Shown here piece after piece: positions 12,503 to 57,850 of a stretch of DNA of 64,000 bases. The notes beneath the pieces were generated by a model. The model did no database searches. It saw nothing but the letters and a program-made list of their open reading frames with translations, and was not told the DNA's origin. Both the position numbers and the translations under genes were made by a program. The stretch is from Escherichia phage vB_EcoP_SU7: the sequence record NC_070980.1. One strand, given 5' to 3'. The first letter of the stretch is position 1, and each line of letters starts with the position of its first letter.

Positions 12503-14650
12503 ATGTCTAGAGAATTAATGCCCAAATCTGGGATAATGATGCCTCACGTGGTAGTTACTAGAGATGCCGCAGTTGTGGGTGTGTCTACAGTTGATGGCGT
12601 GGCAGGTGCTGTTAATTTAACAGATAAATATCTACAAAAGTCTGATGCTGAAGCAACATATCAAACGAAAGCAGAAGGGGCTACTAAGCAATATGTAACC
12701 GATGCTATTAACCCTATTATGACAAATGCTCTGTTTAAAGATGACCCTTTTGTCAATAATGATACACCTATCCGCTCTGGTGGTGGTAACGGTGTTGAAT
12801 CGGTAGACATGATTAAAGTCACTCCTGAGAATAATATCAAACTGGGGAGCTATGCTTCTTCTGTTCAGGGGGTTGAGATTCATTCTGCTGGTCGTCTTCA
12901 GGTTGTTGATCAGAACGATTCTGGAGTCGAAACTAAATACCCGATATACTCCAAAAGGTATCGCCCGGAAGTTGAGGATTTACCTTTCGCTTCAATCGGT
13001 TCCTACGTCAAAGATTCCAAAGGACGCACTATTGGTGTAACTCGTACTGGTATCAACTCTGATATCAAACAACTTACCCAGAAGGTAACTTTCACTCAAC
13101 CCGTTACTGTTCCTGATGCAGTTGGTGATTATGATGCGGTTACTTTGAGACAGCTTCGAAACAGCGGTGGTGGTTCTGGTGGTCCTACAATGAGTGGAAT
13201 TTCTAACTTTGGGATTGGGGATTTTCATTTACGTGACAGCCGTGCTTTCATCCCAGCTTTTGAGGTAGTGTCTGATGGTCAGCTTTTGAATCGTGCTGAT
13301 TATCCAGATTTGTGGGCTTATGCTCAACTGCTATCTCCAATCGAGGATTCTCTTTGGTTATCTAACATCTACCAGAGGGGTAAATACTCTACGGGTAACG
13401 GTACAACGACTTTCCGTGTTCCTGACCGAAATGGTATTCAAGAAGGGTCTCTGAAAGCTCTGTATGGTCGTGGTGATGGTGGAGATTCGGCTGCTAATGG
13501 TCAAATATTTGATTCTGCTGCTCCTAACATTTATGGAGATATTGGTGGTGTTGTTGCTTATGGCCAGACTGGAGCTATTCTACGAGGTCAAGAGGAACAA
13601 CCTCTCGCCCCTCAACCTTCAACTGGAAATGGTGTCTTGAGAGTTAGTTTAGACGCCTCAAAAGCAAGTCCTGTATATGGTCGTTCCACCGATGAAATCC
13701 TAACCCGTAACTTTGTCGGTGTGTGGACTATTCGTGCGCATGGTGGTTTTACTGCTGCTAATACTTCTTGGTCAGTTATTAACAGTGATGCAAACCGTCC
13801 TGCTGGTGGAACTAGGGTAACTAGCGGTTCAGTTGTTTCTGAATATAAAATAGGTTCAGAAGTAGAAGCCTCTACTACGCTCCAAACTGATGCTTATATC
13901 GACGGAGCTTATTATGGGATTATCAATGTTTATAATAAAACCAAAGGAGTTACCAAGCAATTAGCTTTTGACGATTCTGGAACCCTGAACTCTGATAGAT
14001 ATGTTGCTCGGTCTAGAACATTGATGTCTTGGAGTGAAACAGGAAGTCGCAGAGGGACGTTTTCTATAGACAACCAAGGGGTTGGTGCTAACTACTCTTT
14101 TAACTCTATACTGAGTGCTTCCCAAGCATCCCAAGGTGGATACAAAACTACTACCCATGTAGGGATGATTCACAATGATGCTGGATCTTTTGCTGATTCC
14201 TGTTGGCATGTTTCGGGAGATGAAGACAACAAATATGGTTGTCGTTTAACTCTCCGACCAAACAGGAACGAGATTTACTACTACACTTGGCAGCCAAGTT
14301 CAACCGGAACTTATACTCTTGCTATGAATCCTGTATCTGATGAAAAGTTGAAACATAACATCCAAGATATCTCTCCTGATGAAGCAATTCGTGCGATAAA
14401 AGGTTTGGATTTCAAATCGTTTGTGTACAACAATGATAATCAAGGAAGAACTCGTCGTGGTATCATTGCACAGCAGGCAGAGAAAGTTGAACCTCTTTAT
14501 GTTAAAACTCGTAAATTCCATGACAACGATGGGGTAGAGCAGGAACAGAAAGAGTTGGATGCAACTCCAATGCTTTTAGATACCATGCAGGTTGTTCAAG
14601 ATCTGCTGAAGCGTATTGAAGTTCTAGAAGCGAAGTTAGCAGAGAAGTGA
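12503..14650 (+). CDS. Tail fibre/spike with C-terminal intramolecular chaperone (peptidase S74-like) domain
   Basis: C-terminal segment ...NPVSDEKLKHNIQDISPDEAIRAIKGLDF...RRGIIAQQAEKVEP... matches the self-cleaving chaperone domain of endosialidase-type fibres. Confidence 0.65.
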   Translation: MSRELMPKSGIMMPHVVVTRDAAVVGVSTVDGVAGAVNLTDKYLQKSDAEATYQTKAEGATKQYVTDAINPIMTNALFKDDPFVNNDTPIRSGGGNGVESVDMIKVTPENNIKLGSYASSVQGVEIHSAGRLQVVDQNDSGVETKYPIYSKRYRPEVEDLPFASIGSYVKDSKGRTIGVTRTGINSDIKQLTQKVTFTQPVTVPDAVGDYDAVTLRQLRNSGGGSGGPTMSGISNFGIGDFHLRDSRAFIPAFEVVSDGQLLNRADYPDLWAYAQLLSPIEDSLWLSNIYQRGKYSTGNGTTTFRVPDRNGIQEGSLKALYGRGDGGDSAANGQIFDSAAPNIYGDIGGVVAYGQTGAILRGQEEQPLAPQPSTGNGVLRVSLDASKASPVYGRSTDEILTRNFVGVWTIRAHGGFTAANTSWSVINSDANRPAGGTRVTSGSVVSEYKIGSEVEASTTLQTDAYIDGAYYGIINVYNKTKGVTKQLAFDDSGTLNSDRYVARSRTLMSWSETGSRRGTFSIDNQGVGANYSFNSILSASQASQGGYKTTTHVGMIHNDAGSFADSCWHVSGDEDNKYGCRLTLRPNRNEIYYYTWQPSSTGTYTLAMNPVSDEKLKHNIQDISPDEAIRAIKGLDFKSFVYNNDNQGRTRRGIIAQQAEKVEPLYVKTRKFHDNDGVEQEQKELDATPMLLDTMQVVQDLLKRIEVLEAKLAEK

Positions 14651-37781: not shown

Positions 37782-38174
37782 TCATCGTATCACCAGAGGC
37801 TCTTCAGAGTACACAGGAGAGGTTATTTCTACCGGAGGTGCTGCTCTAAGGTCATTAAGCCTTACGCCCTTCAGCATACCATCTAGGTGGTCCATTTTAG
37901 GGATACCTACAGGGAAGTCATCAATCCAAACATCCACAAAGAAACCCAAGCTCTGAGTGACGGAATCCTTCTGAACACCATTGCAAAAGATAACAGGAAT
38001 ATCTAGACTTGCTGCATCTGCTAGAAGCTCCTCATTTGAATACCCATTAGGTTGAGCAAAACGATAGGTGACAATACGTACATCATGTCCACGAGATTTC
38101 ATAAGACCTACAATGTGGGTCCACATCTCTTTGTCCACTGTAAAAGTGTCATCATAATCTAAACCAATATTCAT
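37782..38174 (-). CDS. Putative HAD-like phosphatase
   Basis: N-terminal IGLDYDDTFT fits HAD motif I (DxDxT); short protein, weak call. Confidence 0.35.
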   Translation of the reverse strand: MNIGLDYDDTFTVDKEMWTHIVGLMKSRGHDVRIVTYRFAQPNGYSNEELLADAASLDIPVIFCNGVQKDSVTQSLGFFVDVWIDDFPVGIPKMDHLDGMLKGVRLNDLRAAPPVEITSPVYSEEPLVIR

Positions 38175-38190
38175 ATTAGCCTCTTAGACA

Positions 38191-38212
38191 AGAAAAGCCA
38201 CCCGAAGGTAGC
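38191..38212 (-). terminator. Terminator-like hairpin (same family as 34866-34888)
   Basis: Minus strand GCUACC-UUCG-GGUGGC followed by UUUUCUU. Confidence 0.5.
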
Positions 38213-38458
38213 TTATTTATTCTGTGTTTCCAGTTCGCTGATACGAACTTTCAAACCGTTAATCTCAGCCTGAGCAGCTTCTAGTTTAATTAGAGCTTCT
38301 TCAGCGTCAGCTTCTGTTTGAAGAACCGCAGTGGTTAGTTCGTATAAAGCTTGGCGGAGAGAATCTTTTCCCATAGCATGAATCTGTGCAACAAAGAATT
38401 GCTTACCTTCCGTGGTTTCCAAAGTCTCTTTTAATTCTTTAGATGTTAAAGTCATCAT
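38213..38458 (-). CDS. Hypothetical coiled-coil protein
   Basis: 81-aa helical ORF. Confidence 0.35.
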   Translation of the reverse strand: MMTLTSKELKETLETTEGKQFFVAQIHAMGKDSLRQALYELTTAVLQTEADAEEALIKLEAAQAEINGLKVRISELETQNK

Positions 38459-38838
38459 TACTCCCTTTCATAAATTTTAAGAACTGTACCGCCATCTGCT
38501 TCAATCTGAGCAACTACTTCATCGCGCTCTTCATCAGAATAAACCAGTTGGTTGTGAAATTTGCCTGTACTATCTTGGAAATACACATTCCATTTTGGAG
38601 CAGGTTTACGAATCAAATCCATCATTGATCTCTCTCCTCTCGTTCAACCCATGTATGGAAAAGCTCCCCATACACTTTGGCATCATCAAAACGTCCTTCT
38701 TCCTGTGCGAGTTTTTGTTGCTTCAAGCACCATTCAGAACTTTTTACTTCTTCCACTTCCTTGTCTCCTTAAAAAAGAACTAATCAATAAGACTAGTTCA
38801 TTTCATAATACGATTCAGCTCTTCCACTGAACTAATCA

Positions 38839-39150
38839 CTACTTCTCCACCACAAAGAGGTTAACTTCAATGAAAGTTTCGTATTGTGTTGACTCCTGCT
38901 TACGGGTGTAGTAGAAATGACGACCTTCTAATGCACCTCCGTACTGAGTGGCACATCTTTTAACCATCTCTTTTATCACATCTACAACTGATTCGCCTTT
39001 CCACGGACGTAACCCCTGAGTTGGGACTTTTGCTGTACAGGTTACTTGTGTGTAACCTACATCTTGTAGAGATATCTCAAGAATCAGCTTTGCCCAAGCA
39101 TCAAAATTAAGCTTGGGGTTATATTTAACTTCAGTTTTGATATCAATCAT
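38839..39150 (-). CDS. Hypothetical protein
   Basis: 103-aa ORF whose ATG overlaps the stop of the polymerase C-terminal segment (TAATG). Confidence 0.4.
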   Translation of the reverse strand: MIDIKTEVKYNPKLNFDAWAKLILEISLQDVGYTQVTCTAKVPTQGLRPWKGESVVDVIKEMVKRCATQYGGALEGRHFYYTRKQESTQYETFIEVNLFVVEK

Positions 39151-39302
39151 TAGTGAGTATGATTCCAGTTTAATCCAATCTTACAATCTGATGCAAGAGG
39201 ACATTCCATCTTGAGGTATTCCCCTGCTTTACGAACACATTCTTCAGTGAGGGTACGAAGTTTGTTAACATCATCACGATGTACAGTGAACTGACCTTCA
39301 TC
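39150..39302 (-). CDS. DNA polymerase A C-terminal segment (putative exon 2)
   Basis: Encodes DEGQFTVHRDDVNKL...KIGLNWNHTH*, matching the family A polymerase C-terminus (post-motif-C region and terminal NW..H). Under 60 aa, so absent from the ORF track. Confidence 0.6.
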   Translation of the reverse strand, partial: DEGQFTVHRDDVNKLRTLTEECVRKAGEYLKMECPLASDCKIGLNWNHTH

Positions 39303-39909
39303 CATTCAGTTATTCCCAAATTACTTCGGGTGTCGGACTATATCATAACAGCATAGCTAATTTGCTGTTGTTGGCGCTTCGAGGGTTTCCCTGTTAACCC
39401 CCTACTCCCTTAGGATAGTCTCTACACTTTCCACTTCCGAATCCATCTACAACCGATTCCGAAGCTCACACCAAACTTCTCTGCAAGATGTACACCAGAG
39501 CATTCTGTTTCTAGCCAATAAAGCCTTGCAGCTTCTTGTCTATCTCCATTTCTTCCAGTGTTTGATTCTATTGCATGTTCTGAACCTTCAAGCATTTCTA
39601 AGTGCTCAAGATTGGAACAAGCCCTATTCTTGCATTTGTGATTTATTTCATAACCATCAGGAATAGAACCAAAAGATTCTTCCCAAACATATCTATGATA
39701 CATGACCCATTTGCCATCTATTACTTTTCTGAAATAACCATCTTTGTTAAGTTTGTGTGAGATAGGGATGATACACCCTGTTTCGGTTGTTTCCAAAACA
39801 AGAGTTTTCTTAGCCATATCATCTCCTAATAGCTTAGCTCGGTATTGCCCCCAACTTAATGGTAGGGTTTCACCGAGTTCACCAACTTTTACATGCACAA
39901 TGAAAGTTT
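39303..39909 (-). mobile_element. Intron-like insertion (candidate group I intron) carrying an HNH gene, splitting polA at motif C
   Basis: Upstream segment ends ...ATG CAT (U at the 5' junction); insertion ends ...TGAATG (terminal G); joining gives ...IDMH|DEGQF, restoring an HDE motif C. Core intron structure not verified. Confidence 0.45.
39422..39817 (-). CDS. HNH homing endonuclease (within the polA insertion)
   Basis: ATG 39817 with AGGAG SD; motif YEINHKCKNRACSNLEHLE. Confidence 0.7.
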   Translation of the reverse strand: MAKKTLVLETTETGCIIPISHKLNKDGYFRKVIDGKWVMYHRYVWEESFGSIPDGYEINHKCKNRACSNLEHLEMLEGSEHAIESNTGRNGDRQEAARLYWLETECSGVHLAEKFGVSFGIGCRWIRKWKV

Positions 39910-44162: not shown

Positions 44163-44344
44163 TTACGCTCTCCAATTTCTTCGTAATGACACTCAGTAGT
44201 TAAGCAATCTTTACAGATTGCTGTATAAACCCTGACGTTAGTAAATCGTTTGTTCTTCCCTTTGGTTGGAGAGCCTTTAGCAAGCTCTCTGATAACCTTG
44301 TTACTTAAATGAAGGTTTGTTCCTTCACATCTAGAGCACTTCAT
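44159..44344 (-). CDS. Hypothetical small Zn-ribbon protein
   Basis: CSRC...CKDC pairs. Confidence 0.35.
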   Translation of the reverse strand: MKCSRCEGTNLHLSNKVIRELAKGSPTKGKNKRFTNVRVYTAICKDCLTTECHYEEIGERK

Positions 44345-44660
44345 GGTTCATGTCTTTATGAATCCTGTAAACAGCTGTCGCCATACAAGCAACAGCCTCG
44401 TTGTGTGGGAGATGCATTCCTGTAGAACCATCCCAATCTTTGAACTCAGCGTCAAAGACTCCGGTAGGCTCTGGATACAGAGCTTGCAGCTCCACTAGAT
44501 CATTAGCAACTTGTTGCCATTTATCATCAGACCAGATAGGGTCATCCAACCAGTAATACAAATAGGAATGGATGATCAATTGCCTTCTGTGCCGATTTAT
44601 TACTTCAGCGGGACTTATCTCACTTCCATTTGAAGTCCTAAATGTATTACTGTCAATCAT
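44331..44660 (-). CDS. Small protein resembling the N-terminal Ia domain of NAD-dependent DNA ligase
   Basis: LIIHSYLYYWLDDPIWSDDKWQQVANDLVELQALYPEP parallels the LigA N-terminal H.YLY..D.P.I.D..YD.L..EL...PE pattern; only 109 aa, no adenylation domain. Confidence 0.35.
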   Translation of the reverse strand: MIDSNTFRTSNGSEISPAEVINRHRRQLIIHSYLYYWLDDPIWSDDKWQQVANDLVELQALYPEPTGVFDAEFKDWDGSTGMHLPHNEAVACMATAVYRIHKDMNHEVL

Positions 44661-45056: not shown

Positions 45057-45202
45057 AAGAAATTCCTGCTAATCCTCTGAGTTGTGGGAACAGCAATATT
45101 CACATACTCCACAACAAGGGCAGATTTCTACACTTGGGTCATATGCATCATCAACTGTCATCCCACACTTGGTGCAGAACACGTCATCATCTTCTTCCAA
45201 TA

Positions 45203-45850
45203 TTAACTCTCCAAAGTTTTCTTCAGGGCTGCCCACGAGATTGGGTAGAGTTTAGCCATCTCTTCGTCTAGAGATTGGGCAAACACTCGAACTTCATATT
45301 GAGCGTGAGATGAGAGTCGCTGACGACACAACTCAAACCAGCCATACAAAGAACCAGTCCAGTACCAAGTAGTTATCATACCTTGAGGCAAAACAAATCT
45401 AGCCTGTTCCGGAGCAATAAATTTAATCAATTCATCATAACTAGCAAGAGATGCTTCATACGCAGAGTTAAACAAAGCCAAAGCTTTTGCCTCCTCTTCC
45501 CCTTCAAGAAGCGCTCCAGAACCAGAGTGTAAATCATCTGGACGAGAGAAAATTTCTTTAGGTATGAAAATATCCACTGCTCCGTCTTTGTATCTACGAC
45601 TCATCTCATTCCAAGAGAATCCAACTTGATGTTTTTGTAGCTGTCGTGCGATTGCTATCGGGGCTTCACACCGGAAGCTTGCTTGTGGGTGACGAAAAGG
45701 GCTTACATGGCGTTCTCGAGCTAAGAAGTTAATAAGCCGAGTATCATTTTCTTTCAGCTCCTCCCTTTCTACTCCCATAGTTACACGAGCGGCATTTACC
45801 ACAGTAAGGTCTGATCCGAAGTTATCAATTAGTGAAGCTTTGATTGTCAT
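45203..45850 (-). CDS. thyX: Flavin-dependent thymidylate synthase (ThyX-like)
   Basis: ThyX-like ...FRHPQASFRCEAPIAIARQLQKHQVGFSWNEMSRRY; the usual RHR triad appears as KHQ here, but the alignment is by eye. Confidence 0.7.
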   Translation of the reverse strand: MTIKASLIDNFGSDLTVVNAARVTMGVEREELKENDTRLINFLARERHVSPFRHPQASFRCEAPIAIARQLQKHQVGFSWNEMSRRYKDGAVDIFIPKEIFSRPDDLHSGSGALLEGEEEAKALALFNSAYEASLASYDELIKFIAPEQARFVLPQGMITTWYWTGSLYGWFELCRQRLSSHAQYEVRVFAQSLDEEMAKLYPISWAALKKTLES

Positions 45851-46316
45851 TTATATAAATCTCCTTGACTTTATTATATTCCCTAGAGGCCTCTTCTACG
45901 GTTGAGAAGAGTCCTATATGCTTAGATTTAAATACAGCCCGATAAGCAATAGAACCACTTTTCCTTTTATGAACAGTTACTCCAATTACTCCAGTGGATA
46001 AGTTATTACTCTGTGCTACCCTATTAAGACTGTTTCCTGCTTTAGTAGTCCCTCTAAGATTCTCTCTTTTGTTGTTCAACCTGTTGCGGTCCAAGTGGTC
46101 TACCTCTTCAGGAAGCGAACCAGTGTCCCACCAGTAAGCAAGACGGTGAGCGTAATACTTAACACCTTTATAGATGATTCTCAAATACCCATTGGTATTT
46201 ACAGAACCAGCTATAGATCCTTTGTGTCCTTTTCCATAAGTTTTAACCCATCGGAAATCTCCAGTCAAAGGGTCGTAATCAAGAGCTTCTTTTATTGATA
46301 GGTCAATGTCATTCAT
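45825..46316 (-). CDS. HNH-AP2 homing endonuclease
   Basis: HNH_3 motif YAHRLAYWW...VDHLDRNRLNNKRENLR plus AP2-like C-terminal domain; overlaps the thyX start. Confidence 0.7.
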   Translation of the reverse strand: MNDIDLSIKEALDYDPLTGDFRWVKTYGKGHKGSIAGSVNTNGYLRIIYKGVKYYAHRLAYWWDTGSLPEEVDHLDRNRLNNKRENLRGTTKAGNSLNRVAQSNNLSTGVIGVTVHKRKSGSIAYRAVFKSKHIGLFSTVEEASREYNKVKEIYINDNQSFTN

Positions 46317-46331
46317 CCGTGAACTTCCTTA

Positions 46332-46607
46332 TTACTTTTTGTTCAGAGCTGTATCCAAAAAGGCTTTCAGGTTTGCTTCAGTTTGCATACCGGACAAGCT
46401 GTAATGAGCACCACTGTTCTTATCAGGGATGACAAAGGCTGGGATACTGCGAACACCATATTCAATGGCTCGCTCTCGACCATCACCTTCGGTGATATTT
46501 ACTTCTTCAACTTCTACGTTGTAATCATCTACAACCTTCTTAAACACAGGAGCCATAGCTGCACAAGGTGCACATGAATTACTATAAAACTTAATCACTT
46601 TACTCAT
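46332..46607 (-). CDS. Thioredoxin/glutaredoxin-fold protein
   Basis: ATG 46607; active-site SCAPC (CxxC) near the N-terminus, about 91 aa. Confidence 0.6.
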   Translation of the reverse strand: MSKVIKFYSNSCAPCAAMAPVFKKVVDDYNVEVEEVNITEGDGRERAIEYGVRSIPAFVIPDKNSGAHYSLSGMQTEANLKAFLDTALNKK

Positions 46608-47235: not shown

Positions 47236-47811
47236 TTAGTAAGACACATCACCACTAGAGTGGGACATGTTGCTCTTGACGAAGTAACAGAACTTGCCAA
47301 GACCTTCATTAATTTCTTGAAGCATACTCTGGTCCACTGGATAGGTGCACAAGTCTGAATCAAACTCATCCATCTTCTCAATGATACACATAAGAGTCAT
47401 GCACATGTCGGAAAGCATACCGTCCATGTCAAGATCAGCGTTACCTTCTCGGAACCAAGCATGACCTAAATAATTACTAGCAGTAGCATCCACCTTAACA
47501 CAATGAAAGCGCATACGCTCTGCTATTCGGTCGCCTGCCTCACGAGCATAATCTTCTAGTTCATCGAACATACCATGAACACCTTGGAAACCAGCTCCAG
47601 AGACGTTCCAGTGGTAGTTCTTTGCTTTGATGTGTAGAAGTTCAAGGTTAGCTTGCACACCACACAAGATGTGTTCTAAGCTGTTACCGCTAATCAGTTT
47701 ATTCATTCCCTCAAGACGAGAGATAGAAGAGTCAGTAGTAGAGAATGGGTTGCTAGAACCCACTCGTGTTAGTTCTGGTAAGTCGAAGACATTATTATGC
47801 ATTAGGTGCAT
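47236..47811 (-). CDS. Dps-like ferritin (DNA-protection/ferroxidase family)
   Basis: HWNVSGAGFQGVHGMFDELEDYAREAGDRIAERM matches the Dps ferroxidase-centre pattern. Confidence 0.65.
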   Translation of the reverse strand: MHLMHNNVFDLPELTRVGSSNPFSTTDSSISRLEGMNKLISGNSLEHILCGVQANLELLHIKAKNYHWNVSGAGFQGVHGMFDELEDYAREAGDRIAERMRFHCVKVDATASNYLGHAWFREGNADLDMDGMLSDMCMTLMCIIEKMDEFDSDLCTYPVDQSMLQEINEGLGKFCYFVKSNMSHSSGDVSY

Positions 47812-48142
47812 CCCCTTCTAAGTTAGTTGAATTAGCTACATTACGAGCAATGTTATCCATGACCTGCTGTGTAATAACAATGCAATTCTGAGGGTCTACT
47901 GATTTAGAACGCCCCATCTCAGGGTCATAGACTTTGACTCGCTTGGCTGTTGAGCCAGTAACTTGCAACACTTTGAGAAGATAGCCTTGGTTTCCAATAG
48001 ACCATGCAACAACATCACGATTCTTGATATAACGACCAAGCATGTCACGATGATAGAACTGCTGCATAACTTTAGCTTTGCTAATCTCTTCAGATGGCGG
48101 GGCCACTTTACTCAAATCTAACATAACTCTCTCCTGTTTCAT
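47795..48142 (-). CDS. Hypothetical protein
   Basis: 115-aa ORF. Confidence 0.4.
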   Translation of the reverse strand: MKQERVMLDLSKVAPPSEEISKAKVMQQFYHRDMLGRYIKNRDVVAWSIGNQGYLLKVLQVTGSTAKRVKVYDPEMGRSKSVDPQNCIVITQQVMDNIARNVANSTNLEGDAPNA

Positions 48143-48194
48143 ACAATATTCTTATACTGTATATACATTTGAGAGTTATCATATCTACTACCAA

Positions 48195-48616: not shown

Positions 48617-49150
48617 TTATACGCCTTTAGAAGCAACTACACCATTACTACCGTTATAACGACCCTTCACTGCATAGGAATCATCACCAGCGTGAGAGTG
48701 TTCAAACATAACCATTTGACCAACACGCATCCCAGCACGAACTCGTAAGCTGTGATTGTGGGTAACGTTATGGAACTCAAAGGTTAGCTTACTGCTATTA
48801 AACCCTGCATCAGCCCAACCAGCATGTAAGTGGTTCAAACCACAACGAGCCATAGAGGAGCGAAGTACAAACAGACTTGAGATGTTATCTGGAAGGTTAA
48901 ACTCTTCCATTGAGTGAGCTAAGAAGAACTGTCCCGGAGTGATGACAATGCCATCTTCAGGGATTTTCACTTCTTTCCACTTGAGGTTTTCTTTAGCATC
49001 AATGTCAACAATACCATCAGCCTGTTCTTCAACAAGGATAGTATCACCAATACGGATATCCACGCTAGCAGCGTTAACATATTTATGCTCCGCATCTAAA
49101 AAGCCATTATCAATAACGCTGTGTAATTCTTGAGAACCTAAAAGACTCAT
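48617..49150 (-). CDS. dcd: dCTP deaminase (dUTPase fold)
   Basis: 177 aa; N-terminal ...DNGFLDAEHKYVNAASVDIRIGD... typical of dCTP deaminase/dUTPase-fold enzymes. Confidence 0.7.
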   Translation of the reverse strand: MSLLGSQELHSVIDNGFLDAEHKYVNAASVDIRIGDTILVEEQADGIVDIDAKENLKWKEVKIPEDGIVITPGQFFLAHSMEEFNLPDNISSLFVLRSSMARCGLNHLHAGWADAGFNSSKLTFEFHNVTHNHSLRVRAGMRVGQMVMFEHSHAGDDSYAVKGRYNGSNGVVASKGV

Positions 49151-50634
49151 GAGTTTCTGTTTCCTTGTACAGATGATGCCAAATTATTAATCATATTACG
49201 AGCTGTTTCACGAGATAGTGTAACACCTGCTAGGTTGTTGTGAAGCTCACCAGATAGCTCACGAGCTGCTGCTCGTAGTTCTGCACCAAGTGCAGTGTCA
49301 GAGTGAGCTAGACCATTACGACGACCAACAGGTCGAGGAGCTTCGTTAGCGTCATTAGCTAATGATGCAAAACCAATATGAGCAGCTTCACGAGCCGCTA
49401 TAGCTGATACTCGATCTTCTGTAGGGGTTGGCAAATCACCAACTTCTACACGTTCAATATCACTAGCACGTAGACCCTGAACAACAGAGCTTACTGTTTC
49501 CCATGAACGACGAGAACGCTGCAAATCATCCATTGACGGAGATGGAATAGGACGAGCAGTTCCTCCTTGGACATGCCATGTACGAGTATCCATTCCAGAA
49601 GAGTGTGCACTACCAAAACTACCAGTGAAAGTATCACGAGGTCTTTCATGAGGTTGTACGTTATACCCTACAACACCCCCTCGAACAGTTCGAGAAGTTT
49701 CTTCATTAAAAGCTTGAAGATCTCGTCTGTTAGTTCCCGGAGTCCAAGGTCGTGTAATTGCTTCAGCACCTATAGTGGTTAATCCACTAGACCATTCTGT
49801 CTGTAGGTTAACTTCCTCGTCCAGATAACTACGACCCCTTTCCTGAGGAATGTTTAATGTAGTTTCCATCATCTTCAGGGTATAATGACGACGCTGATTC
49901 TGATATAAATTTACACCAGCCATAGGCCCAACTAAATCACTGATCAGATGAACTTCTGGTTCACCAAAAGCTCCCATTGCAAGGTGCATGTACTCAGTAG
50001 AACTGCTGTAAACTGCAACTGTTGCTTCAGGCCACTTTTTGTGGACATACTTCATGTCACGACTTGTCACCACAGGGATATCATTAGTATATGCCATTGC
50101 AAACATACCTTCGTTCGACACATACATATCATCGAGAGTCATAAACCCTTGACAAATCATAGGGAAGCGACCGCTCAGAGTATCCATATCCAGAGGGAGG
50201 TTAATCATCATCTGAATCTTCACTTCGTCAATCTCCACTTCCAAAATCTCTTGGAAAGTGAAAAGTGCTTCAGCGTAGGTTGTTCCACTGATAGGCTGAA
50301 CTAGTCGAGATGTAACTTGAAGCCCCTTACTCTCTGTCCAAGACAAGAAGTTGTCAAGGAACAGTGCAGCATTACTTACGTTAGCAGGGCTGTTTTCCTG
50401 ACGAGTGTTCCAACGGAATCCTCCTTGAACTAGGAAGATATCAACATCATTCGGAGTTCGATTTTGGAAGAACGTATCACGGATAGCACCACCTGCAATG
50501 ACAGGATAGATACCATCAGGGACTACGTTATCTCTGATCAGATTGCGAATCAGATCAAGCCCTACGCTGAGGGCTTCTCCTTCTTGAAGGTTTAATTCAG
50601 ACAATGGAATCTTAATCATTTCTACATTTTCCAA
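49147..50634 (-). CDS. Putative Pol-beta superfamily nucleotidyltransferase
   Basis: IAGGAIRD...(13 aa)...DVDIFL fits the hG[GS]...DxD minimal nucleotidyltransferase pattern (CCA-adding-like head); C-terminal about 150 aa low-complexity Ser/Arg/Ala-rich. Confidence 0.4.
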
Positions 50635-51170
50635 TTTAGAGATGGGGGATTCTTATAATCAAATCCAGCCATTTGACAAAGACACATGTAAACTTTAACT
50701 GTCAAGTTAACGTCTTGCTCACAATAGGTGAACATGTCTTCAGTGAATGCGTCCCATGCCTCCTCCTGTTCTCCATAATCTCCTTTCAGCTCCCCAAGAA
50801 ACTCGCCCCATTGTTTGAGGCCGTGACCACGAGGGCCATGTCTAGGGTCGCCTTTGGGGTATTCTGGACTATCACCAATACGGTCAGGCTTGAGATATCT
50901 ACTCAGGCACAAAGTATCGAAGACGTTAAAGCGAAAAGGTATCACATGAGAATAAAACTTAAACAAAGCAGGAAGGTCAAAATCAATAATATTGTGACCT
51001 ATTACTACATCAGCTTCTTTCAGTTTGTGTAGTGCTTCTTCAATTTGGTGAGGGCGATACCCCCACCGCTCTCCAGATAATACATCAAATATCCAGATAC
51101 ACCAGACATTCTGAATACCATCATAGAGATTATCCCCCTCGATATCAAACGCATACAGTTTCTTTACCAC
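50622..51170 (-). CDS. 3'-5' exonuclease domain protein (T7 gp5 N-terminal domain-like), separate from the polymerase ORF
   Basis: Exo I FDIEGDN, Exo [16 protein letters not shown], Exo III YCEQD; ends with a stop, about 9 kb from the polymerase-domain ORF. Confidence 0.7.
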
Positions 51171-52989: not shown

Positions 52990-53195
52990 TTAGTAAAACG
53001 ATCGTATTTCTTCCCACACATCATCTTGCAAGTTTCTAAAACCCTGCAAGGTTTGCTTTGTTCTGTGAATAAATTCTTCAGAGTGCTTATCAGGTGTGAG
53101 CATACTGACAAACTTTTCATAGCGATTAATCTTCCACCGCATCTTTAAGTAGTCAGATTCAAGCTTTCTTAACTTCTGCCTGTCAGTTACTGTCA
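52990..53195 (-). CDS. Hypothetical small protein
   Basis: Track ORF trimmed to internal Met after the upstream gene's stop. Confidence 0.3.
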
Positions 53196-53614
53196 TCCTT
53201 CTCACCTGCCAGATATGCTGTCCAGTCACCCGATTCAACCAGAACATCTTGTTCTTCGTCGATGTGATAAATCCACGCTTCCACAGTTTCACCGCTGTCC
53301 AATAATACTGGAATCAGCGTACGCTTGTAAAAGGTGTATGGGTTATCATTACCACGATGACCTTCCAGACCGTCATACGGACCTTCCAGACCAGCTTGGG
53401 TTGTTTCAAAGACTTCTACACGAACAGGCTTACCATTGCTGTCATGCTCCAAAGATACACTTGGGAAGTATGCTGTGCAATATTGATACAGGTTACAGTT
53501 GTTTACTGTCCACCCTTCACCAATAGACACACCACCGGCACGAGCATTGATAGCGTGGTTGTGTTGACCTTTTCTCAAGCTTCCGTAAGTTGCAACTAGT
53601 ACTTTATCAGACAT
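53183..53614 (-). CDS. Gamma-glutamyl cyclotransferase-like (AIG2/GGCT fold) protein
   Basis: N-terminal VATYGSLRKGQHNH (YGSL motif) and 143-aa size. Confidence 0.55.
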   Translation of the reverse strand: MSDKVLVATYGSLRKGQHNHAINARAGGVSIGEGWTVNNCNLYQYCTAYFPSVSLEHDSNGKPVRVEVFETTQAGLEGPYDGLEGHRGNDNPYTFYKRTLIPVLLDSGETVEAWIYHIDEEQDVLVESGDWTAYLAGEKDDSN

Positions 53615-54131: not shown

Positions 54132-55367
54132 TTACAGAGTTACTGCTACTTCGCTACCTTCAACATTGACAGACTCTAACTTGCGAGGGTTATGAATCTG
54201 GACTGGATTGACCGGAACGTTCCAACCACTGCGGTAGAAGTTACGACCATCACAGAACAGGATGACATTGGCAGACATTGCATTCGGTTGCAGGTTGTTG
54301 TGGACATGACGGATATTTGCAATCCAGTAGCCACGAGACAAAGTGTAGCCAGTAGGTGCATTACGAATAGTTTGAGTATTCATCTGACCTTCCAGTTGCA
54401 TTTCTTCAGGAACCACATCAACTGAATCAATCGGCTGTGCTACTTGTCCTTCCAGTGCAAAGTTTTCATCATCAGCACTTTCACTGTCAGCAACCAATTC
54501 ACCGTCCCCGTCTTCAATCGGAGTCTGGTAAACCACTTTATACTGAGGGGTATAGAGAGGGTTCTGAGCTTTAACAAACTCAAGAATGTTGTGACGATAA
54601 GTATCCAGAGTCGTACCAGTCAGTCCCGGTGCTGTGTTAACTTCCAGTACCCATGCTTCTTGACCTTTGGTGATAATATCAACTGCACCGAAATCCAGAC
54701 CCATTGATTCAACAGCTTTCACCGCATTGATCAGAGAGGCATCATTCGGAGCATCTGTGAAGGAGCTTGAGTAAACCCAGCCAGTGTGGTGATTACGAAT
54801 ATCTTCACGATAGTTAGGGTCTTCGCGATAACCATTGCGACGAATCTTCTTCTGAACATAGGTGATTACACCTTTGAACACATGGACACGCCATTCACGA
54901 CGTGGGCCTTGAATACCTTTAGTGTACAGCTCAGCCTGATCAACTGTAGTGTTAGGCTCTACAACAACAATACCTGAACCAGAGTGACCAGTCAGCTCGT
55001 GACGCTCATACACAATGTTGCCAGCGTTTGACCACTCCTGAGCAGTCTCTTGAACATCTGTGTATTCCACAGTTTTAACACCTGCTTGGTCCATCACACT
55101 GAAAGCACGACGTTTGTTCGCTGCCATATGTAAGGCTGCGGTACGGTTAAGGACGGTTGCAGAACCAAAGAATGATTCAGGATAGCGACGGTTCCCGTAG
55201 TTAACAACCACATCATCTTCACGAGAACGCCAGCGGCTATTCTCTGAAAGAAGCCCCATCACGTTAGCATTGATGCGTTCATCACGGATAGTATCACTGA
55301 TAGCAGATACCAGAGCGTTAACAGAATCAGACGGGCCATACGGAAGAACACGGATACGAGTAGTCAT
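54132..55367 (-). CDS. ATP-grasp ligase (RimK/glutathione-synthetase-like)
   Basis: ATP-grasp pattern: ...HSGSGIVVV..., ...WRVHVF..., ...EAWVLEVNTAPGL... Confidence 0.6.
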   Translation of the reverse strand: MTTRIRVLPYGPSDSVNALVSAISDTIRDERINANVMGLLSENSRWRSREDDVVVNYGNRRYPESFFGSATVLNRTAALHMAANKRRAFSVMDQAGVKTVEYTDVQETAQEWSNAGNIVYERHELTGHSGSGIVVVEPNTTVDQAELYTKGIQGPRREWRVHVFKGVITYVQKKIRRNGYREDPNYREDIRNHHTGWVYSSSFTDAPNDASLINAVKAVESMGLDFGAVDIITKGQEAWVLEVNTAPGLTGTTLDTYRHNILEFVKAQNPLYTPQYKVVYQTPIEDGDGELVADSESADDENFALEGQVAQPIDSVDVVPEEMQLEGQMNTQTIRNAPTGYTLSRGYWIANIRHVHNNLQPNAMSANVILFCDGRNFYRSGWNVPVNPVQIHNPRKLESVNVEGSEVAVTL

Positions 55368-55816: not shown

Positions 55817-57850
55817 TTAGTGTTTACCTTTACAGTAATCTGAATTACAGATCACCCTGTTTTCTTTGTTCAGTGAGCAAGTTTCTGCATCACGCCACGG
55901 AATTTGTTTATAACAGACTGCACAAAACCCAATTGAAGTCCAGAGGGCTTTTGTGAACTCGGCTGTTCGTTGTCCATCATAGCTGACAACTGTTTTTCGG
56001 AGAGAGGTTGACTTTTTTGGAAATGTCTCCGCTTTCTCAGCGGGTACCTCCTTTGGGGAATTCTTTGGACCATAAACAGAGATGGCATAAGTATCACCAC
56101 CACGTTTTTCCAAATACGAATTAGGAACATCTGCAAGTGTAATATCCCCTGAACGTTTTGCTGAGCTAACCATTACGATCATACGGCTAAGCATACGTTC
56201 ATCAACACGAACAGCTACTTCAGGACGACGTGGGTTGGTTGTGTCTACTGCTTTAGTCCAAATATAACCCTCAGATAGAGTAACATTCTTTACTTTATCT
56301 TTGATTTCTTTGGAGCAGATATAACAAACATCTTCACCACGAAGTTTACTCATTTCGTTGTCAAACTCGAAATCAGTCTTGACTTCACCACAGACAGCAC
56401 ATACGCCCAAAGGCACATCTTCTTCATCTTCAGAGATTTTAGATAACGCTTCGAAGCATTCTGGATGCCAGTATGCTTGATAAGCAAACACAGCCTTACG
56501 AGCATCTTTCCAGTCAATGTGCTTATCACAACCACCACAATCACCATGAGAGTGAGATTCCCAGAACTTACGAGTGACTTCTACACCATTTTTAGTGATG
56601 AAGGAGTCCTCTGCATCAAAAGGGATGTCATCATCAAAATCAGCAGTAGTGCTTTGAGGCTCCTTATCTGTAGCATCAACAAACAGCCCTGAAGTTAGTA
56701 CGAGGCGAATCATACTGTCCACTTCGGAGATACAAGCAATCGTCCCGCGATATACTACCTTTGGGTTTTCAAGAGCCTTAAGATATTCATCTTTGGCTAC
56801 GTTGTGAACATCCCCTTCGACATACTCTTGGGCTTTATCGTCGTAGATGTAACCAATCATCTTACCACGATCTGTGTTGTTATAAGCATGGAACTCGTGA
56901 GGAATAATATCCACACGACCATCACGACGATAAGGAAGACCACGATCGGCAGCCAGTTTGTTCTGGTCTTCAATCGCTTTACGACGACGAATGTCTCCGC
57001 TTGTCACGCCGGGCTTGTCGTCTTTGTTTCCGTAAATGTCGCTTGTGCTGCTGCTTGATTTGTTTGTCTGTTGGTTCTGATATAGAGAGGAGTTCGAGTA
57101 ATAGCCGCCCCAGCGACTCGTTATCGTAAAAACCGGAAGCTTGTGCTCCACCTCTTGAACCAGAGTCATACGACTGTTAGACACATCAAAGATATACTCA
57201 GTTCCCACTTTACATTCGAAGTGGTCATTGATACGGTTCTTGTGGGATTTAGAACGCTCTAAAATCCACATAAGCATAGCTTCTTCAGAAGCCCCAAACC
57301 AATCTAAACCACAACGGGCTAGGTGGAAAGGACGCTCATCATTACGGATAATGTGAAGCGTGTTGTCTTTAGCATCATGCCAAATCAAAGTGAATGCACC
57401 ATCCAGTTTTTGGATAGTCTCTGCTGCTCCAATGGTATTAATTGAGTGGCAGATGTTTTCACTATCAACTTCGAAACGCTTACTGTCAGGAAGGAGATCT
57501 TGATCTAACAGGGTTCCATTATGAACCAGAGTAATATCCCCGTGAGTAAATGGGTGAGCATTTCGAGCATTGACAGCCCCACGAGTGGCATGTCGGCTGT
57601 GACCAACAATCCACGAAGGAGGAACTACGTAGTTCGTAAGCCCTTTGGTAATATTTGTATATTCTGTCTGGAGCATAAAAGCATAAGAAGGAAGAGCTTC
57701 TTTATAAGAGAAGACTTGCTTTTCACCTTTACGCTGACCAAACACACCAGTTGAGTGCTGTCCACGGAAAACACCAGCATACAGAAGTTGGTTGAAAATA
57801 TCCAAATCTGTTGAGGTCATGTTGCCGCCAGCTAATACGATACCACAAAT
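55817..57850 (-). CDS. Class II (Ntn-type) glutamine amidotransferase with C-terminal Cys-rich domain; predicted AUU start
   Basis: In-frame upstream of the track ATG (57820) the sequence reads TAG AAA ATT TGT GGT ATC = stop-K-I-C-G-I-V, i.e. the conserved (M)CGIV nucleophile; the only start placing Cys at position 2 is ATT 57848-57850, with AGGTGG SD 8 nt upstream. Downstream RGQHSTGV, GHSRHATRG, NAHPF, HNG motifs. Confidence 0.6.
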   Translation of the reverse strand: MCGIVLAGGNMTSTDLDIFNQLLYAGVFRGQHSTGVFGQRKGEKQVFSYKEALPSYAFMLQTEYTNITKGLTNYVVPPSWIVGHSRHATRGAVNARNAHPFTHGDITLVHNGTLLDQDLLPDSKRFEVDSENICHSINTIGAAETIQKLDGAFTLIWHDAKDNTLHIIRNDERPFHLARCGLDWFGASEEAMLMWILERSKSHKNRINDHFECKVGTEYIFDVSNSRMTLVQEVEHKLPVFTITSRWGGYYSNSSLYQNQQTNKSSSSTSDIYGNKDDKPGVTSGDIRRRKAIEDQNKLAADRGLPYRRDGRVDIIPHEFHAYNNTDRGKMIGYIYDDKAQEYVEGDVHNVAKDEYLKALENPKVVYRGTIACISEVDSMIRLVLTSGLFVDATDKEPQSTTADFDDDIPFDAEDSFITKNGVEVTRKFWESHSHGDCGGCDKHIDWKDARKAVFAYQAYWHPECFEALSKISEDEEDVPLGVCAVCGEVKTDFEFDNEMSKLRGEDVCYICSKEIKDKVKNVTLSEGYIWTKAVDTTNPRRPEVAVRVDERMLSRMIVMVSSAKRSGDITLADVPNSYLEKRGGDTYAISVYGPKNSPKEVPAEKAETFPKKSTSLRKTVVSYDGQRTAEFTKALWTSIGFCAVCYKQIPWRDAETCSLNKENRVICNSDYCKGKH

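Follow-up and report, generated by a model that had tools for sequence, protein, structure and literature searches.

A divergent, head-only class II-type nucleotidyltransferase with a predicted disordered tail, encoded between exonuclease and dCTP deaminase genes of Escherichia phage vB_EcoP_SU7

The DNA examined here (the window) is a stretch of 64,000 nucleotides from Escherichia phage vB_EcoP_SU7 (sequence record NC_070980.1), and the gene with which we are concerned encodes a nucleotidyltransferase (NTase) on its minus strand, as do both of its neighbours. An original prediction, made from the letters and their open reading frames, placed this gene between those for an exonuclease and a dCTP deaminase, and profile matches bear this location out. 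Upstream lies the 182-amino-acid 3'-5' exonuclease subunit of a split family A DNA polymerase (50622..51170; phrog_38876, phrog_403 and PF01612, the last at 24.2 bits against a cut-off of 23.6), and downstream the dCTP deaminase (48617..49150; PF22769, E 1.6e-34; phrog_1663). The open reading frame (ORF) at 49147..50634 that was originally described is real and uninterrupted, and would encode 495 amino acids if read from the TTG at 50634. However, translation almost certainly begins at ATG 50619, which gives a coding sequence of 49147..50619 (490 amino acids plus the stop codon), because this ATG sits 2 nucleotides past the exonuclease stop codon (...AAA ATG TAG AA ATG ATT...; junction AAAATGTAGAAATGATT) and because both the homologues and the PHROG profile begin there. 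The N-termini of the homologues read MIKIP, MIVIP or MYNIP, none of them carries the five extra codons of the TTG form, and the phrog_12715 alignment opens at residue 6 of that form. Residue numbers are counted throughout from ATG 50619. At the other end of the gene, the ATG of the dCTP deaminase overlaps the TGA of the NTase (ATGA; junction CTCATGAGT). As judged from its sequence, the product is divergent from the characterised class II nucleotidyltransferases and has only the head in common with them. It consists of a folded catalytic domain followed by a long tail that is predicted to be disordered.

The DNA of the region is 94-97% identical to that of the phiEco32-like E. coli podophages PAS59, Bas86, IME267, 101114UKE3 and EK010, of which IME267 is classified in Gordonclarkvirinae, genus Suseptimavirus, and by this measure the window is that of a Suseptimavirus-type, phiEco32-like coliphage. 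The NTase itself is 96% identical to a 'hypothetical protein' of PAS59 and 86-93% identical to proteins of IME267, Bas86 and Bas88 annotated 'nucleotidyltransferase', and it matches phrog_12715 ('nucleotidyltransferase') from end to end (E 9.4e-160; residues 6-488 of the TTG form against positions 1-456 of 457 of the profile). As such, the sequence is not new, and the family is already catalogued and annotated in phrog_12715 and, as 'nucleotidyltransferase', in RefSeq; it was also pointed out in the paper describing the BASEL phages (PMC11990801), and a peptide of the SU10 orthologue (gp74) has been detected by mass spectrometry (PMC4281155). Orthologues occupy the same position in Kuravirus phiEco32 (gp73, 437 amino acids) and Nieuwekanaalvirus EP335 (gp070, 426 amino acids), where they align with the SU7 protein over the first 210-290 residues only, at 31-40% identity. 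When a profile of the three genera was run against 1.84 billion cluster representatives, 36 proteins were returned at E <= 1e-3, of which approximately 30 (274-482 amino acids) are true members, and the family is therefore a small one. Its members were found only in phages, and no relatives turned up when 185,579 bacterial and archaeal genomes were scanned; a word-indexed protein search gave close relatives only, for all three genera. Precomputed tables tag the orthologues of the phiEco32 clade (P0023-P0064) with PF26128, a label that came up neither in the local Pfam scan nor in the papers searched.

The folded catalytic domain (residues 1-235; 49915..50619, with this and all other features of the gene on the minus strand) consists of a class II-like Pol-beta head and a family-specific C-terminal subdomain. 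The nucleotidyltransferase signature first noticed in the N-terminal region, GG.IRD...DVD, is present, and its residues G43, G44, R47, D48, D58 and D60 are invariant in all 25 family members used for our conservation counts, which are 22-36% identical to the SU7 protein. In SU7 this motif A reads AGGAIRD...NDVDIF, fits the pattern GGxVRD(x8-10)DxD, and aligns with the GGAVRD...D.D of Cca and of the human and Planococcus enzymes; the more general signature of the Pol-beta superfamily, hG[GS] followed by [DE]h[DE]h, is likewise present (AGG at 42-44, D58-V-D60-I). Its first half, the GGxVRD-type G43-G44-A-I-R47-D48, lies at 50476..50493, and its second half, D58-V-D60, which holds the two metal-binding carboxylates and is followed by an invariant F62, at 50440..50448. 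The residues found in 25 of 25 members are G43, G44, R47, D48, D58, D60, F62, Y115, I125, Q136, P153, Y191 and K195. Since six residues of motif A are invariant across relatives of such low identity, and since the fold search agrees, the match to this motif is not attributable to chance. A probable third metal-binding carboxylate, whose role we assign from the general pattern of the Pol-beta superfamily, is E124 (50245..50250 together with the invariant I125), which falls in strand 122-130 of the model described below; this column holds D in 16 and E in 9 of the 25 members. Further along is a motif specific to the family, R187-D188-x-x-Y191-x-x-K194-K195 (50035..50061), located by spacing where class II enzymes carry EDxxR. 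Here R187 is kept in 20 of the 25, column 188 is D in 22 and E in 3, and Y191 and K195 do not vary.

Owing to the tail, the full-length AlphaFold2 (AF2) model was poor, with a predicted local distance difference test (pLDDT) of 48, and the domain was re-modelled alone with a more diverse alignment. The resulting model of residues 1-236 (pLDDT 87.9; predicted template-modelling score 0.84) contains the minimal alpha-beta-alpha-beta-alpha-beta Pol-beta fold. A Foldseek search of the PDB with this model gave class II enzymes as all of the top 11 matches (E from 5.5e-5) and as 38 of the 39 matches at E <= 1e-3, the exception being porcine OAS1. The family profile run against PDB sequences found CCA-adding enzymes (E 0.0015), and the Pfam PolyA_pol head (PF01743) is matched by 19 of the 25 members, with a best E of 8.6e-5, although every score shown is below the gathering score. 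The signal comes from profiles and structure only, as single-sequence searches of Pfam, NCBIfam, PADLOC and the PDB (phmmer) returned nothing useful. The HMM and structure-based searches thus find both a Pol-beta fold and the catalytic carboxylates in place, and they agree with the earlier view of the N-terminus as similar to the heads of CCA-adding enzymes and poly(A) polymerases (PAPs). The ratio of non-synonymous to synonymous substitution (dN/dS) in the domain is 0.03-0.08 between close relatives, indicative of strong purifying selection. Given the predicted Pol-beta fold, the invariant active-site residues and this selection, the domain apparently works as an enzyme, one belonging to the class II lineage.

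The remainder of the protein, residues 236-490 (49150..49914), is predicted to be disordered on the basis of model confidence, composition and alignment, with pLDDT below 50 over residues 261-448 of the full-length AF2 model. It was originally proposed that about 400 residues are unlike the CCA and poly(A) enzymes; as the folded domain takes up approximately 235, this description fits approximately 255 residues only. The Ala/Arg/Ser-rich character ascribed to the C-terminal region does agree with the composition of residues 301-490 (A 11.6%, R 11.1%, S 10.5%, G 8.9%, with near-zero net charge), and the tail as a whole is rich in Ala, Arg, Ser, Thr and Gly. By sequence comparison the tail is genus-specific: it is covered in only 21 of 96 phage records with a tblastn match, and the tails of the three genera are unalignable except for WSxGL (W276..L280) and a basic patch from P361 to R370. 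The first of these, the linker motif W276-S-S-G-L280 (49780..49794), has W276 and L280 invariant across the three Gordonclarkvirinae genera, and in the form [WY]-[ST]-x-G-[LR] it is traceable in most, but not all, of the longer distant relatives and is absent from the shortest. The second, P361...QRSRR370, in which P361 and R370 are invariant across the same genera, falls within a fast-evolving, indel-rich segment (residues 301-400; 49420..49719) where dN/dS reaches 0.47-0.77 between sub-clades and indels of 4 to 12 residues occur. Selection is stricter on either side of it, with a dN/dS of 0.10-0.18 for residues 236-300 and of 0.15-0.26 for the C-terminal 90 residues (49150..49419). The latter are Ala-rich (19.8% Ala over the last 91 residues) and predicted, at low confidence, to be helical (402-414, 419-426, 443-463 and 470-485 in the full-length model). 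The gene is also a mosaic, in that the domain is closest to that of Bas88 (dS 0.18; the value to PAS59 is 0.43) but residues 236-490 hardly differ from those of PAS59 (dS 0-0.03), and a recombination event near the boundary of domain and tail (approximately residue 235, window position ~49915) is therefore indicated. Taken together, this pattern would fit a flexible tether with short binding motifs.

Among the systems to which the protein may be compared, the nearest are its own orthologues of phrog_12715 (phiEco32 gp73, SU10 gp74 and EP335 gp070), which are the same gene in the same position, with a domain 31-40% identical and all invariant residues in common, and which differ in tails of ~190-215 amino acids that cannot be aligned with that of SU7 apart from WSxGL and the P...R(S/R)R patch. 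Comparable stand-alone class II-like heads of ~170-220 amino acids, also among replication genes, are found in unrelated phages as the NTases of phrog_1614, namely LKD16 ORF16 and those of LIMEzero, phiAS7, PP2 and Cd1 (hosts Pseudomonas, Pantoea, Aeromonas, Pectobacterium and Caulobacter, respectively), and also in fHe-Yen3-01. The SU7 domain matches such heads in a Foldseek search of BFVD at E 1e-9 to 1e-4, with a template-modelling score of up to 0.6 on the target; profile matches to phrog_1614 range from E 4e-6 to 2e-8, and LKD16 ORF16 aligns over motif A. These proteins are only 12-18% identical to the SU7 domain, however, and have no long tail and another neighbourhood (in LKD16, helicase - NTase - ligase). 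The Streptococcus pneumoniae protein NP_344798.1 (PDB 2LA3), a stand-alone 'CCA-adding enzyme head domain' protein, is a much weaker match and has no tail; we know of no function assigned to it.

The order exonuclease subunit - NTase - dCTP deaminase recurs in every lineage inspected, down to an NTase identity of 23-26%; these were the window, phiEco32, EP335, two IMG/VR contigs (82-88 kb, 26-32% NTase identity) and four Logan metagenome contigs. A T7 gp4-like primase-helicase is encoded further upstream of the exonuclease gene, and wherever the contigs are long enough, the primase-helicase and a GGACT gene are found upstream and thioredoxin and ThyX downstream. As the whole 15-kb module is syntenic, the adjacency of these genes may reflect common descent as much as functional coupling. 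The polymerase to which the exonuclease subunit belongs is split, with a separate 614-amino-acid polymerase subunit encoded ~9 kb downstream (Bas86 37864-39708). The possibility that the NTase itself is the polymerase partner of the exonuclease subunit was considered and rejected, since the relatives encode this separate family A polymerase. The original prediction reported no tRNA genes in the window, and a search with ARAGORN likewise returned none. However, Gordonclarkvirinae carry a single tRNA-Arg(UCU) (PMC9965538), which in Bas86 lies at 14533-14610, ~16 kb further along and ~2.7 kb beyond the equivalent of the window end; the window is without a tRNA gene because it ends short of this locus.

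Several other features of the surrounding DNA may be recorded here. GGACT/AIG2-like gamma-glutamyl cyclotransferase (53183-53614, minus strand), RimK-like ATP-grasp ligase (54132-55367, minus strand) and class II glutamine amidotransferase (55817-57820, minus strand) genes form a cluster that continues upstream, where Bas86 relatives annotate an adjoining 'amidoligase' and 'COOH-NH2 ligase'; the gene content suggests a peptide-like or amide-bond modification pathway. Mass spectrometry of a single SU10 phage preparation detected both products of this cluster and the NTase. On the other side, a 109-amino-acid ORF (44331-44660, minus strand) has phiEco32 and Bas86 homologues annotated 'DNA ligase' but is far too short for a complete ligase, and may encode a ligase-like domain only. 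Between ThyX and thioredoxin is an ORF (45825-46316, minus strand) whose Bas86 counterpart bears the annotation of an HNH homing endonuclease. For most close relatives, DNA alignments at >=85% identity begin only at ~46343, and the ThyX/HNH segment (45070-46342) is common to PAS59 and Bas86 only. A Dps/ferritin-like protein (47236-47811, minus strand; PF00210, E 7e-8) is encoded among the nucleotide-metabolism genes, and is kept in phiEco32 and in distant relatives. With respect to promoters, AAATGTATA at 48162-48170 (minus strand) is one mismatch from the phiEco32 gp36-sigma promoter element tAATGTAtA and stands just upstream of a 115-amino-acid ORF (47795-48142), where phiEco32 has its gene 68 promoter. 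A further sequence, AAATGTAGA, just 5' of the NTase ATG, also resembles the phage sigma element, but it was set aside as a promoter given its two mismatches from the consensus and its overlap with the stop and start codons. Matches to this element in the window as a whole are not above chance (22 observed, 18.4 expected).

What reaction the SU7 enzyme catalyses can be approached through its structural relatives. Our leading proposal, to which we would give somewhat less than an even chance, is the untemplated addition of nucleotides to the 3' end of a polynucleotide, most probably RNA. In this scheme, an active stand-alone NTase of the poly(A) polymerase/CCA-adding lineage would use a two-metal mechanism to transfer a nucleoside monophosphate from the corresponding triphosphate to the 3'-OH of its acceptor without a template. 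The acceptor would be RNA, so that in the replication phase of an infection the enzyme would tail transcripts of the host or the phage, or else the 3' ends of tRNA; RNA 3' ends are ranked the likeliest acceptor because all of the close structural relatives act on them. As the neck, body and tail domains of the CCA-adding enzymes and poly(A) polymerases are missing, the determinants of specificity would have to lie in the family-specific subdomain (R-D-x-x-Y-x-x-K-K) and in the 255-amino-acid Arg/Ser/Ala-rich disordered tail, whose motifs (WSxGL, the QRSRR patch and the C-terminal helices) may anchor the enzyme to nucleic acid or to a protein partner.

A number of observations weigh against this proposal, the first being how far the protein departs from its well-known relatives. 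PF01743 has a gathering score of 23 bits, which is not reached by the SU7 domain (12.1 bits) or by phiEco32 gp73 (18.8 bits), and the 495-amino-acid form gives no match at E <= 0.1. Motif B, the RRD that senses the ribose 2'-OH, is found in 0 of 25 cores; the position at which spacing would place it reads x-x-[FM]-P, with the invariant P153, and an 'NRRD' at residues 297-300 belongs to the tail and is not conserved between genera. The same is true of motif D, the base-templating EDxxR of the neck (0 of 25 cores), with R-D-x-x-Y-x-x-K-K at a comparable spacing; in E. coli Cca and PcnB, RRD and EDxxR follow DxD by ~70-80 and ~110-125 residues, respectively. These equivalences of motifs B and D are drawn from spacing only, with no superposition of coordinates, since hhalign of the family profile with the single E. 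coli PcnB and Cca sequences reached motif A only or gave nothing meaningful. Nor do any helical RNA- or tRNA-binding body or tail domains follow the head. Compared with E. coli PcnB (PAP I; PDB 3AQL/3AQK/3AQM), which has RRDFT, EDxxR, RNA-binding neck, body and leg domains and a basic isoelectric point (pI) of 9.7, the phage protein has neither these motifs nor these domains and carries a disordered tail instead, at 13% identity. The class II CCA-, CC- and A-adding enzymes (1MIV, 1OU5, 4X4W, 6IBP, 3H37, 3WFO) likewise differ from it in having motifs B and D and a tRNA-binding body and tail, and the phage family attains only 12-19 bits against the 23 of PolyA_pol. Being below the Pfam cut-off, and without RRD, EDxxR or an RNA-binding body or tail domain, the SU7 protein falls, on these sequence grounds, outside the canonical CCA-adding enzymes and poly(A) polymerases. 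The acidic nature of the core (pI 4.4-5.4) was considered as a further sign against nucleic-acid binding and dropped, as the head of E. coli Cca is equally acidic.

The biological context adds further points of the same kind. The tRNA-Arg(UCU) gene of the phage encodes its own 3' CCA, and maturation of this tRNA is therefore an unlikely role for the NTase; the host, moreover, already has Cca and PAP I. No published assays of this family or of the related small phage head-only NTases were found in the literature, so that the substrate is assigned by homology only. Finally, the translational coupling of the gene to the exonuclease subunit and the dCTP deaminase fits a role linked to DNA or nucleotides at least as well. 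Of the functions first suggested for the protein, tRNA or RNA tailing is thus the best fit by homology, with the qualification that RRD, EDxxR and the RNA-binding domains are missing; tailing, signal synthesis and anti-defence activity could not be told apart, and the original prediction is on the whole partly supported, its structural reading being the part that is upheld.

The strongest competitor to 3'-end addition to RNA, which we consider unlikely, is an enzyme linked to DNA: a dNTP-using terminal transferase, or a nucleotide- or DNA-modifying step shared with the exonuclease and dCTP deaminase, which might aid resistance to restriction. The conserved order of the three genes in all eight lineages examined, the start and stop codons of the NTase that abut or overlap those of its neighbours, the missing ribose-sensing RRD motif and the analogous position of the head-only NTase of the phiKMV-like LKD16, between helicase and DNA ligase, are each consistent with such a role. 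Gordonclarkvirinae are, furthermore, remarkably resistant to restriction-modification with no known modification pathway, and the NTase/dCTP deaminase gene pair has been pointed at in this regard (PMC11990801). However, in a syntenic 15-kb module adjacency may be mere common descent, and the need to supply dTTP for a genome of 42% GC is explanation enough for the dCTP deaminase, ThyX and dNMP kinase. We know of no class II NTase that acts on DNA, and to our knowledge such genomes are routinely sequenced and modification has never been reported in them. In addition, hexamer palindromes in the window occur at 0.59 of their expected number, against 1.01 for non-palindromes, with nine absent (including CTGCAG, GAGCTC and GCATGC), and there is only 1 GGATCC site and 3 CCWGG sites. 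This depletion points to the avoidance of restriction sites, which fully protected DNA would not need, and not to blanket protection by modification. The boldest version of this alternative, in which the protein would be the first class II-type NTase to act on DNA or deoxynucleotides and would join the exonuclease and the dCTP deaminase homologue in introducing or preserving some non-canonical feature of the phage DNA, we regard as improbable.

Somewhat less doubtful than this boldest version, though unlikely in its own right, is a nucleotidylyl transferase directed at a protein or small molecule (AMPylation or UMPylation, for host takeover or anti-defence), with the tail as a targeting element. 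The Pol-beta superfamily does include protein and antibiotic nucleotidylyl transferases, the NTase has no recognisable nucleic-acid-binding domain, and a fast-evolving, genus-specific tail in a gene that is mosaic at the boundary of domain and tail is what might be expected of an interface with a variable host partner. Yet the nearest structural relatives are all enzymes of polynucleotide 3' ends, families of the MNT and kanamycin-NTase type are not among the top matches, there is no NTP_transf_2 match in Pfam, and no target can be named. For the minimal NTases of toxin-antitoxin systems (MNT/HEPN, AbiEii/MenT; NTP_transf_2 and relatives), which would be marked by a Pfam or PADLOC profile and an accompanying partner gene, the outcome was likewise negative.

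That the protein synthesises a nucleotide signal in the manner of cGAS/DncV or OAS, or consumes or mimics the signalling nucleotides of host defence, appears very unlikely. The resistance of Gordonclarkvirinae to most tested defence systems (PMC11990801) would be in keeping with such an activity, but the PADLOC profiles for defence and for cGAS/DncV-like NTases (CD-NTases) give no match even at E <= 10, and the helical C-terminal lobe of CD-NTases is missing from the AF2 model. The GGxVRD form of motif A is, moreover, typical of the CCA/PAP lineage and not of CD-NTases. Least credible of all is a protein that merely retains the fold and, being catalytically dead, serves as a scaffold or an accessory of the replisome, as might be supposed of a gene within a replication operon whose product bears a long disordered tail with short linear motifs, because dead enzymes usually lose the metal- and triphosphate-binding residues, whereas here every one of those expected is invariant over 22-36% identity and the domain evolves at a dN/dS of 0.03-0.08.

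Head-only class II-like NTases sit in the replication modules of many virulent phages, including phiEco32-like, phiKMV-like, Fri1-like and others, and the SU7 family is an extreme form of these, with altered specificity motifs and a disordered tail of 255 amino acids. The phages that carry it are common in nature, are used in therapy cocktails and are unusually resistant to bacterial defences. Were the role linked to DNA the true one, the interest of the family would rise considerably; in the boldest version given above, a non-canonical DNA feature would account for the resistance of Gordonclarkvirinae to almost every restriction-modification system tested. Genetics is feasible with the BASEL isolates able to grow on E. 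coli K-12, and the identity of the substrate would tell the remodelling of RNA 3' ends from something new on DNA or nucleotides.

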